Shown piece by piece: positions 2,921 to 63,471 of a stretch of 64,000 nucleotides of DNA (position 1 is the first letter of the stretch; every line of letters begins with the position of its first letter). The notes under the pieces are model-generated. The model ran no database searches. It worked only from the letters and a program-made list of their open reading frames with translations, and was not told the origin of the DNA. The stretch is from Escherichia coli. GTDB taxonomy: Bacteria; Pseudomonadota; Gammaproteobacteria; Enterobacterales; Enterobacteriaceae. Position numbers and translations under genes: made by a program. The stretch lies in NCBI RefSeq assembly GCF_003334765.1, contig NZ_QOWT01000001.1. One strand, 5' to 3'.

Positions 2921-3286
2921 GTGGAAAAATGTGACTTTTATCACATAATAGTACTAAGTCTGAATTTTCCGGGTTATCTCAAAATGGAATACGGTTCGAC
3001 AAAGATGGAAGAGAGACTCTCTCGCAGCCCTAGTGGCAAACTGGCTTTGTGGGCTTTCTATACATGGTGTGGCTATTTCGTCTGGGCAATGGCGCGTTAC
3101 ATCTGGGTGATGAGCCGGATCCCCGATGCCCTCGTGTCGGGATTTGAAAGCGATTTAGGCTCTACCGCGGGAAAGTGGTTAGGGGCACTGGTCGGATTTT
3201 TATTTATGGCTCTGGTCGGGGCATTGTTAGGCAGCATTGCCTGGTACACCCGACCTCGTCCCGCACGTAGCAGACGCTATGAATAA
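2921..3286 (+). CDS. yedR: small inner membrane protein YedR
   Basis: ORF track 2903..3286; hydrophobic segments; start uncertain (TTG 2903, GTG 2921 or ATG 2984). Confidence 0.6.
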   Translation: MEKCDFYHIIVLSLNFPGYLKMEYGSTKMEERLSRSPSGKLALWAFYTWCGYFVWAMARYIWVMSRIPDALVSGFESDLGSTAGKWLGALVGFLFMALVGALLGSIAWYTRPRPARSRRYE

Positions 3287-3325: not shown

Positions 3326-4021
3326 ATGGACTTACAACACTGGCAGGCACAGTTCGAAAACTGGTTGAAAAACCATCATCAGCACCAGGACGCGGCCCAT
3401 GACGTGTGTCATTTTCGCCGCGTCTGGGCTACGGCACAGAAGCTGGCGGCAGATGATGACGTCGATATGCTGGTGATTTTAACAGCCTGTTATTTTCACG
3501 ATATTGTGAGCCTGGCGAAAAATTATCCGCAAAGGCAGCGTTCTTCAATCCTGGCGGCAGAAGAGACGCGTCGCCTGCTCCGTGAAGAGTTCGTGCAATT
3601 TCCGGCGGAGAAAATCGAGGCCGTTTGTCATGCCATTGCCGCTCACAGTTTCAGCGCGCAAATCGCCCCCTTAACCACGGAAGCTAAAATCGTCCAGGAT
3701 GCGGATCGGCTGGAAGCCCTGGGGGCGATTGGCCTGGCGCGCGTGTTTGCCGTTTCAGGGGCATTGGGCGTGGCGCTGTTTGATGGCGAAGATCCGTTCG
3801 CACAGTATCGCCCGCTTGATGATAAACGCTACGCGCTGGATCATTTCCAGACTAAGTTGTTGAAGCTACCGCAAACCATGCAAACCGTAAGAGGCAAGCA
3901 GCTGGCGCAGCACAACGCGCAATTTTTAGTCGAGTTTATGGCGAAGCTCAGTGCCGAACTGGCGGGGGAGAATGAAGGTGTCGATCACAAGGTGATAGAT
4001 GCGTTTTCACCCGCGGGCTGA
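3326..4021 (+). CDS. yedJ: HD-domain phosphohydrolase YedJ
   Basis: 231 aa ORF with HD motif (CYFHDIV...DADRLEALG). Confidence 0.85.
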
Positions 4022-4087
4022 GCGCGTGGCCCTAAATGGCTGTAATTATGTTAACCTGTCGACCATCTCAGATGGCCGGTTAAATCT

Positions 4088-5506
4088 ATGCAGGAAAATA
4101 TATCAGTAACCGATTCATACAGCACCGGGAATGCCGCACAGGCAATGCTGGAGAAACTGCTGCAAATTTATGATGTTAAAACGCTGGTGGCTCAGCTTAA
4201 TGGTGTGGGTGAGAATCACTGGAGCGCGGCAATTTTAAAACGTGCGCTGGCGAATGACTCGGCATGGCACCGTTTAAGTGAGAAAGAGTTCGCCCATCTG
4301 CAAACGTTGTTACCCAAACCACCGGCACATCATCCGCATTATGCGTTTCGCTTTATCGATCTATTTGCCGGAATTGGCGGCATCCGTCGCGGTTTTGAAT
4401 CGATTGGCGGACAGTGCGTGTTTACCAGCGAATGGAACAAACATGCGGTACGCACTTATAAAGCCAATCATTATTGCGACCCGGCGACGCATCATTTTAA
4501 TGAAGATATCCGCGACATCACCCTCAGCCATAAAGAAGGCGTGAGTGATGAGGCGGCGGCGGAACATATTCGTCAACACATTCCTGAACACGATGTTTTA
4601 CTGGCCGGTTTCCCTTGTCAGCCATTTTCGCTGGCTGGCGTATCGAAAAAGAACTCGCTCGGGCGGGCGCACGGTTTTGCCTGCGATACTCAGGGCACGC
4701 TGTTCTTTGATGTGGTGCGCATTATCGACGCGCGTCGTCCGGCGATGTTTGTGCTCGAAAACGTCAAAAACCTGAAAAGCCACGACCAGGGTAAAACGTT
4801 CCGCATCATCATGCAGACGCTGGACGAACTGGGCTATGACGTGGCTGATGCAGAAGATAACGGGCCGGACGATCCGAAAATCATCGATGGTAAACATTTT
4901 CTGCCGCAGCACCGTGAACGCATCGTGCTGGTGGGTTTTCGTCGCGATCTTAACCTGAAAGCCGATTTTACTCTGCGTGATATCAGCGGATGTTTCCCTG
5001 CGCAGCGAGTGACGCTGGCGCAGCTGCTGGACCCGATGGTCGAGGCGAAATATATCCTGACGCCGGTACTGTGGAAGTACCTCTATCGATATGCGAAAAA
5101 ACATCAGGCGCGCGGTAACGGCTTCGGTTATGGAATGGTTTATCCGAACAATCCGCAAAGCGTCACCCGTACGCTGTCTGCGCGTTATTACAAAGATGGC
5201 GCGGAAATTTTAATCGATCGCGGATGGGATATGGCCACGGGTGAAAAAGACTTTGACGATCCGCTGAATCAGCAACATCGTCCACGTCGGTTAACGCCTC
5301 GGGAATGCGCGCGCTTAATGGGTTTTGAAGCGCCGGGAGAAGCGAAATTCCGCATTCCGGTTTCGGACACTCAGGCCTATCGCCAGTTCGGTAACTCGGT
5401 GGTCGTGCCGGTCTTTGCCGCGGTGGCAAAACTGCTTGAGCCAAAAATCAAACAGGCGGTGGCGTTGCGTCAGCAAGAGGCACAACATGGCCGATGTTCA
5501 CGATAA
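4088..5506 (+). CDS. dcm: DNA-cytosine C5 methyltransferase Dcm
   Basis: 472 aa ORF with C5-MTase motifs ([17 protein letters not shown]). Confidence 0.93.
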
Positions 5507-5957
5507 GGCCACACGCAGCAAAAATATGCGCGCGATTGCCACGCGTGATACGGCGATTGAGAAGCGCCTCGCCAGTTTGTTAACCGGGCAGGGACTGGCG
5601 TTTCGCGTTCAGGACGCCAGTCTGCCCGGACGCCCGGATTTTGTCGTTGATGAATATCGCTGCGTGATATTTACCCATGGCTGCTTCTGGCATCATCATC
5701 ACTGCTATCTGTTTAAAGTGCCTGCGACTCGAACCGAGTTCTGGCTGGAGAAGATAGGTAAAAATGTTGAGCGCGATCGCCGCGATATCAGTCGCTTGCA
5801 GGAACTCGGCTGGCGCGTATTGATTGTCTGGGAGTGCGCGTTACGTGGGCGCGAGAAGCTGACGGATGAAGCGCTTAGCGAGCGTCTGGAAGAGTGGATC
5901 TGCGGCGAAGGTGCCAGCGCGCAGATCGACACGCAGGGGATTCATTTACTCGCTTGA
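5487..5957 (+). CDS. vsr: very short patch repair endonuclease Vsr
   Basis: ATG at 5487 inside the 3' end of dcm in another frame; product [22 protein letters not shown]..., 156 aa. Confidence 0.9.
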
Positions 5958-6866
5958 TGCGTCCTGAATAACTGGCGCAACTACGGGTTTTGCCGGAAAG
6001 AGATATTTTCCCAACGTGACCAGCACCACCGCGAAGACAATTACGCCGAGCGCCAGCCATTCAATCTTCGAAAGCGTCTCTCCACCCAGTCCCGTACCCA
6101 GCAAGACCGCGACCACCGGGTTAACGTAGGCGTAGCTGGTGGCGAGAGCCGGACTGACGTTGCGGATTAAATACATATAAGCGTTGATGGCGATAATCGA
6201 ACCAAACAGCGCCAGATAGCCGACCGCAAGGAAGCCTGAAAGGGAAGGGAGCGCCGTCAGTTTTTCACCCGCAATCATCGACGCGATCATTAACACCACG
6301 CCTGCCGCCAGCATCTCAATCGCACCCGCCATCATCCCTACAGGTAAGGTAATGTGCGAGCCATAAACTGAGCCAAACGCCCAGCTAATCGAGCCGATTA
6401 AAATCAGAATCGCGCCCCACGGATTGCCGCTTAAATTTCCACCGCTATTGAGCATGATGATTCCGGCAAGCCCAATGGCAATACCCACCCATTCCAGTTT
6501 GCGCGTTTTAATGCCAAACAGGCGGCTGAAGCACAGGGTAAAGAGGGGCACGGTTGCAACCACTACGGCGGCGATGCCGGAAGGAACATTTTGATGTTCG
6601 GCAACCGTCACCATGCCATTACCGACAGCCAGCAATAACAGGCCAATCAGCGCGGCATTGAGCAGCGGACGTAGCGGGGGGAGCTTGTGTCCGCGCAGTA
6701 GCAAAAATGCCAGCAATAAAATACCGGCTGCCAGGAATCGAACGCCCGCCATCATTAATGGAGGCCAGCTTTCCACGCCAATCCGAATGACAAAATAGGT
6801 TGAGCCCCAAATGATATACAACGCAAACAGCGCGCCAAAAAGCGGTAATAACTGGCGGAAACGCAT
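5946..6866 (-). CDS. yedA: EamA/DMT-family inner membrane transporter YedA
   Basis: 306 aa polytopic membrane ORF. Confidence 0.85.
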   Translation of the reverse strand: MRFRQLLPLFGALFALYIIWGSTYFVIRIGVESWPPLMMAGVRFLAAGILLLAFLLLRGHKLPPLRPLLNAALIGLLLLAVGNGMVTVAEHQNVPSGIAAVVVATVPLFTLCFSRLFGIKTRKLEWVGIAIGLAGIIMLNSGGNLSGNPWGAILILIGSISWAFGSVYGSHITLPVGMMAGAIEMLAAGVVLMIASMIAGEKLTALPSLSGFLAVGYLALFGSIIAINAYMYLIRNVSPALATSYAYVNPVVAVLLGTGLGGETLSKIEWLALGVIVFAVVLVTLGKYLFPAKPVVAPVIQDASSE

Positions 6867-11092: not shown

Positions 11093-11179
11093 AACACATC
11101 AGATTTCCTGGTGTAACGAATTTTTTAAGTGCTTCTTGCTTAAGCAAGTTTCATCCCGACCCCCTCAGGGTCGGGATTT
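11093..11179 (+). ncRNA. dsrA: DsrA small regulatory RNA
   Basis: Sequence aacacatcagatttcctggtgtaacgaattttttaagtgcttcttgcttaagcaagtttcatcccgaccccctcagggtcgggattt matches remembered DsrA, including its terminator hairpin. Confidence 0.85.
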
Positions 11180-44852: not shown

Positions 44853-44928
<76 letters not shown>

Positions 44929-44982
44929 GTTTAAAAGACATCGGCCTCAAGCGGATGTCTGGCTGAAAGGCCTGAAGAATTT

Positions 44983-45056
44983 GGCGCGTTAACAAAGCGG
45001 TTATGTAGCGGATTGCAAATCCGTCTAGTCCGGTTCGACTCCGGAACGCGCCTCCA
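44983..45056 (+). tRNA. cysT: tRNA-Cys (anticodon GCA)
   Basis: ggcgcgttaacaaagcggttatgtagcggattgcaaatccg...cgcgcctcca. Confidence 0.9.
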
Positions 45057-45068
45057 CTTTCTTCCCGA

Positions 45069-45155
45069 GCCCGGATGGTGGAATCGGTAGACACAAGGGA
45101 TTTAAAATCCCTCGGCGTTCGCGCTGTGCGGGTTCAAGTCCCGCTCCGGGTACCA
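45069..45155 (+). tRNA. leuZ: tRNA-Leu (anticodon TAA, long variable arm)
   Basis: gcccggatggtggaatcggtagacacaagggatttaaaatccc...gggttcaagtcccgctccgggtacca. Confidence 0.9.
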
Positions 45156-63358: not shown

Positions 63359-63386
63359 TTCTCCCGATTTCCTCAATTGAAATGAA

Positions 63387-63414
63387 CCCGATGATCTGCG
63401 CATCGGGTTTTTTA
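63387..63414 (+). terminator. Rho-independent terminator after cheW
   Basis: cccgatgatctgcgcatcggg hairpin followed by tttttta. Confidence 0.7.
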
Positions 63415-63444
63415 TTTCAATTTCGCGGCGGGTGGCATCAGCAA

Positions 63445-63471
63445 TAAAGTTTCCCCCCTCCTTGCCGATAA
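63445..63471 (+). promoter_or_regulatory. sigma-28 (FliA) promoter of tar
   Basis: Perfect TAAAGTTT-N11-GCCGATAA about 30 bp upstream of the tar ATG. Confidence 0.8.

Follow-up and report, generated by a model that had tools for sequence, protein, structure and literature searches.

The window analyzed here, a stretch of 64,000 nucleotides from the Escherichia coli contig NZ_QOWT01000001.1, carries the genes dcm and vsr in an overlapping arrangement that is confirmed as a real, ordinary, and already known feature. The two genes probably constitute the chromosomal dcm–vsr operon, in which vsr is translated from its own ATG at position 5487, located inside dcm, and in which efficient translation of vsr depends on the ribosomes that translate dcm. 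Annotations of K-12 and of almost every E. coli genome include the overlap as a standard feature, and it has been described since the early 1990s. The initial annotation placed the start of vsr at ATG 5487, 20 nt before the end of dcm and in a different frame, which is exact in the sequence, the frame being +1; it also called the arrangement not novel, in agreement with the same 20-nt overlap annotated in K-12. Confirmation of the overlap shows that the coordinates and gene calls of that annotation are reliable in this part of the window. The dominance of the vsr frame within the overlap, the formation of the dcm stop from vsr codons 6–7, the conserved core of the Shine–Dalgarno (SD) sequence, and the occurrence, in several genera, of vsr with no dcm next to it, all described below, are refinements of a known system.

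Geometry of the Overlapping Reading Frames

The features of the region, numbered by position in the window, are:

4088..5506, + strand: dcm coding sequence, from the ORF list; 472 aa, start ATG at 4088, stop TAA at 5504–5506; C5 methyltransferase for CCWGG
5456..5516, + strand: predicted hairpin around the SD sequence, the vsr AUG, and the dcm stop, based on the E. coli sequence only and not established as a real element
5475..5480, + strand: SD-like AAGAGG, inside dcm codons, 6 nt upstream of the vsr ATG
5487..5506, + strand: dcm/vsr overlap on the same strand; 20 nt, with vsr in the +1 frame
5487..5957, + strand: vsr coding sequence, from the sequence; 156 aa, start ATG at 5487, stop TGA at 5955–5957; T:G mismatch endonuclease of very-short-patch (VSP) repair
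5946..5957: tail-to-tail overlap of vsr with the convergent yedA; 12 nt, found in the sequence, the ORF list, RefSeq, and the K-12 annotation
5946–6866, − strand: yedA coding sequence, convergent neighbor of vsr

The distance between the two start codons, (5487 − 4088) mod 3 = 1, places vsr in the +1 frame with respect to dcm. On the vsr side, the overlap comprises codons 1–6 and two bases of codon 7 (M A D V H D K); on the dcm side, it comprises the last two bases of the codon for His467, codons 468–472 (G R C S R), and the TAA. The length of 20 nt includes this stop codon, the first base of which lies 17 nt past the A of the vsr ATG. The vsr gene is overlapped at both ends, by dcm at the 5′ end and by yedA at the 3′ end, with the vsr–yedA overlap being variable in length or absent in other genera.

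Identity of the Encoded Proteins

The Vsr translation scores 182.7 bits on the NCBIfam profile TIGR00632 (“DNA mismatch endonuclease Vsr”), far over the cut-off of 97.85, and the match spans positions 1–119 of the 119 in the profile. Its residues 2–156 align with chain A of PDB entry 1cw0, with 154 of 155 residues identical and T131S as the only difference (E = 7e-106). These two matches, together with the junction itself, which is present in 5318 of the 5426 complete genomes of E. coli, indicate that the vsr ORF is not a chance one. Residues D51, T63, H64, and H69, as well as C66, H71, C73, and C117, which we take to be the catalytic and Zn-binding residues described by Tsutakawa et al. in 1999, are all found in the Vsr translation of the window. 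Judging by the near-identity to the K-12 enzyme, this protein would act on the T:G mismatches that result when 5-methylcytosine is deaminated, nicking 5′ of the T within CTWGG/CCWGG (PMC2715241). The Dcm translation scores 950 bits against PRK10458 (NF007772, “DNA cytosine methylase”, cut-off 710) and 349 bits against TIGR00675 (cut-off 100.65), and contains the C5-methyltransferase motifs I (FxGxG, as DLFAGIGG), IV (PCQ, as GFPCQPFS), and VI (ENV, as ENVKNL). The gene identities originally proposed for both reading frames are thus those on which the NCBIfam profiles, PDB 1cw0, and the RefSeq annotation agree.

Comparison with K-12 and Other E. coli Genomes

In the annotation of K-12 MG1655, vsr occupies positions 2030448–2030918 and dcm positions 2030899–2032317, with a 20-nt overlap there too. 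The RefSeq positions of dcm and vsr in strain 1428, an E. coli genome that is 100% identical, convert to 4088–5506 and 5487–5957 of the window. Comparison with the annotated overlap had been suggested as a check, and both annotations return the same geometry. Several complete E. coli chromosomes match the 2-kb region with 100% identity, and 5368 of the 5426 complete genomes contain the region; the 80-nt junction (5447–5526) is found with at least 95% identity in 5318 of the 5426, with both genes annotated under the junction in every match sampled.

Dcm is identical to its K-12 counterpart in 470 of 472 residues (E301G and R470C), and Vsr shows one difference (T131S). Two positions of the 60-nt junction differ from K-12. 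The junction in the window is a minority allele, since only 148 of the 5318 genomes are at least 99% identical to it over 5447–5526. Relative to the K-12 dcm–vsr operon (b1961–b1960; Sohail et al. 1990; Dar and Bhagwat 1993), the region has the same genes, the same 20-nt +1 overlap, ATG, TAA, and SD, and the same neighbors, with yedJ located upstream and the convergent yedA downstream, and differs in allelic substitutions only.

The surroundings are those of an ordinary E. coli chromosome. Positions 5958–30000 of the window, which include yedA, yedI, dgcQ, yedE, and the fli genes, match strain 1428 with 100% identity, and the sRNAs and a tRNA cluster are found at their expected places. The latter, detected with Rfam and ARAGORN, are the RseX, DsrA, and C0465 sRNAs and the cluster tRNA Gly(GCC)-Cys(GCA)-Leu(TAA), at 2667–2756 (−), 11093–11179 (+), 63378–63455 (−), and 44853–45155 (+).

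vsr Loci in Enterobacteriaceae

A survey with one genome per species comprised 80 Enterobacteriaceae loci, in which Vsr is 77–98% identical to that of the window. Classified by a script, these loci are distributed as follows:

dcm overlapping vsr: 56 of 80 loci, with vsr always in the +1 frame and TAA always as the dcm stop
dcm adjacent but non-overlapping: 2 of 80 loci, with gaps of 12 and 35 nt
extra ORF between dcm and vsr: 4 of 80 loci, Buttiauxella
no dcm within the upstream flank of about 3 kb: 18 of 80 loci

The dcm gene lies directly upstream of vsr in 58 loci, and the overlap is kept in 56 of them. It is exactly 20 nt long in 48 (with the start codon being ATG in 45 and GTG in 3), and 14, 17, or 35 nt long in the remaining overlapping loci. 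The gap between the end of dcm and vsr is 35 nt in Buttiauxella sp. B2 (L068) and 12 nt in Enterobacter sp. Ag1 (L080). In four other Buttiauxella loci (L051, L053, L057, and L062), the overlap is broken by an inserted ORF of 175–190 aa, found at about 2035–2750 on the − strand, the N terminus of which is apparently signal-peptide-like; vsr has its own SD there.

In the 18 loci with no dcm in this flank (L026, L031, L033–L035, L037, L039, L044, L045, L055, L056, L058, L060, L065, L067, L070, L073, and L081, with vsr at about position 3001), vsr is flanked by yedJ (or another gene) and by yedA. The genera concerned include Kosakonia, Phytobacter, and Pseudescherichia, as well as some Klebsiella and Enterobacter, and their Vsr proteins are 78–86% identical to the E. 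coli protein. A mutator effect of excess Vsr has been reported (PMC2715241), and for this reason Vsr without Dcm would be unexpected.

Sequence Constraint within the Overlap

The 48 species loci with a 20-nt overlap were aligned together with the window, giving 49 sequences. In this alignment, residues 3–5 and 7–14 of Vsr are 100% conserved and the nucleotide changes in the overlap are confined to third codon positions of vsr; the last seven residues of Dcm occur in 24 different versions. The TAA that terminates dcm is formed from vsr codons 6–7, encoding Asp6–Lys7 (GAT AAG, read as GA-TAA-G). These codons are CAT AAT in Superficieibacter and CAT AAC in Pluralibacter (L043) and in L054, where the overlap is 14 or 17 nt long, and GAC AAA in Siccibacter, where it extends to 35 nt. 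Because the length of the overlap shifts when vsr codons 6–7 change, it is the vsr frame that dictates the sequence. In these comparisons, the overlap sequence is imposed by the vsr frame, with Dcm ending at the first stop that this frame offers and with the Dcm tail varying freely. An instance within the species is the change of C to T at 5495, the one position of the overlap at which the window departs from K-12; this change is silent in vsr (Asp3) and results in R470C in the Dcm tail.

Ribosome-Binding Site of vsr

The predicted energy of the duplex of AAGAGG with the 3′ end of 16S rRNA is −5.8 kcal/mol. The GAG core of this element, at positions −10, −9, and −8, is conserved in 100, 96, and 84% of the 49 loci, and the neighboring Dcm residues in only 29–45%, which suggests selection for the SD sequence rather than for a glutamate in Dcm. 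The mean SD energy is −5.5 kcal/mol in the overlapped loci, −7.3 kcal/mol in those lacking dcm, and −6.5 kcal/mol in the six loci in which dcm is adjacent or separated. On average, the SD is weaker in the overlapped loci than in the other 24 (18 without dcm and these 6), with a Mann–Whitney p of 0.005 that is uncorrected for phylogeny. The weaker SD of an overlapped vsr is consistent with partial reliance on upstream ribosomes.

RNA Structure at the Junction

The minimum free energy fold of the E. coli junction (5427–5546, 120 nt) has a z-score of −2.08. Across 57 orthologues, conservation of the predicted hairpin at 5456..5516 did not exceed the background, with 67.7% of the cells paired, equal to 67.7% in the shuffles (301 of 500). 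RNAalifold applied to the orthologue alignment did not recover this hairpin and gave it no covariation support. The predicted accessibility of positions −15 to +5 is 0.47 in the overlapped loci and 0.42 in the loci lacking dcm, which is no difference. A hairpin that masks the SD and AUG of vsr and is unfolded by ribosomes translating dcm is therefore unsupported, since the pairing equals that of the shuffles and accessibility is equal in both groups of loci.

A separate 4-bp hairpin is seen at 5529–5545 (vsr codons 15–20), pairing columns 103–106 of alignment A1 with columns 116–119. It includes one covarying pair, 5531/5543, at third positions of vsr codons (GC in 18, CG in 14, UG in 14, and other combinations in 11 sequences). 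The covariation exceeds that in all 500 shuffles; it is that of a single pair and may be a clade effect. The same segment also scores as terminator-like on the − strand, about 400 nt past the yedA stop.

Expression of vsr and Its Dependence on dcm

In a simple consensus scan, which is weak evidence, the + strand had no promoter-like site from 3508 to 6786, as would fit co-transcription, and no terminator-like site after vsr. In work dating from 1993, Dar and Bhagwat are said to have found that Vsr synthesis begins at an initiation codon of its own, with a fusion excluded, and that translation of dcm is required for efficient synthesis of Vsr. The two genes have been reported to form one operon (PMC12907096). 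Another paper states that dcm and vsr partly overlap and that vsr activity is lost as well in dcm-6, which has a nonsense mutation at codon 45 of dcm (PMC4444293, citing Dar and Bhagwat 1993). The effect of dcm-6 could also be due to Rho-dependent transcriptional polarity, which would give the same phenotype as coupling. Translational coupling, by which the initial annotation had characterized the pair, is not visible in the sequence and rests on the literature, namely on the dcm-6 result as cited in PMC4444293 and on the 1993 work of Dar and Bhagwat.

The further description of the two genes as co-expressed is sustained at the level of transcription, with both in one operon (PMC12907096). It does not extend to the activity of Vsr, which is not simply proportional to Dcm, because VSP repair is reported to belong mainly to stationary phase and methyl-directed mismatch repair to exponential phase (PMC2715241, which cites Macintyre et al. 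1999).

In the reading that we consider probable, a single mRNA originating upstream of dcm would carry both genes, and Vsr would be a separate polypeptide with no frameshift fusion, as the literature and general knowledge suggest. Ribosomes translating dcm would cross the SD and the AUG of vsr and terminate 17 nt downstream. As it stops 17 nt past the vsr AUG, a terminating dcm ribosome would have to move backwards; such ribosomes may re-initiate after a short backward diffusion, or may leave the site accessible to new 30S subunits. The result would be a small, methylase-linked supply of Vsr, with growth-phase control added.

Since vsr possesses its own usable SD, and since 18 species evidently translate it without dcm, independent initiation could explain much of its expression. 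Taken further, translation of vsr might be essentially independent of dcm and driven by its own SD, with the overlap being a matter of compaction, fixed by a chance TAA in the Vsr codons, and with the dcm-6 effect being one of polarity. Such an account would be in keeping with the AAGAGG element, its 6-nt spacer, and its predicted −5.8 kcal/mol, with the vsr start unchanged in the 18 species loci that have no upstream dcm, and with the lack of a conserved masking structure. The sequence GATAAR is found in most of the loci lacking dcm too, so that the TAA exists regardless of dcm, and VSP repair mainly in stationary phase, as reported in PMC2715241, would also be accommodated. We nevertheless regard fully independent translation as unlikely, as a nonsense allele of dcm abolishes vsr activity, according to PMC4444293. 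Against it, too, the SD is weaker in overlapped than in non-overlapping loci. Efficient Vsr synthesis, moreover, is the very process for which Dar and Bhagwat reportedly found translation of dcm to be needed.

It is conceivable, but rather doubtful, that the overlap is a dosing device rather than a means of compaction, a possibility weakly favored by the single, uncorrected comparison of SD strengths (p = 0.005). The weak SD would then set Vsr at a small fixed fraction of the dcm ribosome traffic, a setting that would be overridden in stationary phase. If true, dosing by overlap would hold a mutagenic nuclease low while the methylase is made.

Start Codon of vsr

The start of vsr at 5487 is not mis-assigned. 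The N-terminal sequence MADVHDK is conserved across the 80 species loci, and the 18 loci lacking dcm begin vsr with the same MADVHDK, several of them having an in-frame stop a few codons upstream. As these loci keep the MADVHDK start, the ATG serves as the start codon even where there is no overlap. The in-frame TTG codons found further upstream, at 5325, 5415, and 5436, were rejected as vsr starts on the basis of conservation, a missing SD, and the stops near the ATG in the loci lacking dcm.

It is very improbable that the true start is the next in-frame ATG, at 5526 (Met14), which would leave no functional overlap with dcm. This codon is in frame with vsr, and N-terminally truncated forms of Vsr have been crystallized (1vsr from residue 21, 1odg from residue 23), but 1cw0 represents the full-length protein crystallized from residue 2. 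No SD-like sequence is present upstream of ATG 5526, where the sequence reads GCAGCAAAAAT, and residues 1–13 are conserved as protein in the 80 species, with nucleotide variation of the synonymous type. Full endonuclease activity and MutL stimulation are both reported to require the first 14 residues of Vsr, and both diminish when these are lost (PMC2715241). RefSeq and the curated K-12 annotation both place the start at 5487.

There is hardly any likelihood that Vsr activity originates from a Dcm–Vsr fusion produced when ribosomes shift to the +1 frame in the overlap, with no separate initiation: the two frames do overlap in the +1 register on one mRNA, but orthologues of vsr retain an ATG or GTG and an SD of their own, the conservation persists in loci lacking dcm, no recognizable slippery or hungry-codon motif is conserved in 5487–5506, and Vsr alone (155 residues) is the active, crystallized enzyme. 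A fusion was also, reportedly, excluded by Dar and Bhagwat in 1993.

Comparison with Other Linked Gene Pairs

Translationally coupled genes usually overlap by 1 or 4 nt, and trpE–trpD and trpB–trpA have overlaps of 1–4 nt of the ATGA/TGATG type. Like these pairs, dcm and vsr are located on one strand and in one operon, with the start and the SD of the downstream gene inside the upstream coding sequence, and the expression of the downstream gene is reported to depend on the upstream gene (PMC4444293). The dcm–vsr overlap of 20 nt differs from them in being longer than the usual 1 or 4 nt. In Neisseria, V.Ngo and V.Nme are likewise nucleases of the Vsr family linked to a 5mC methyltransferase (PMC12907096), but linkage of the Neisseria type is often found within restriction–modification systems and with other specificities, whereas the methylase here is the solitary Dcm and the two genes share a true coding overlap. 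The VsrA protein of Caulobacter is unlinked to its methylase (PMC12907096).
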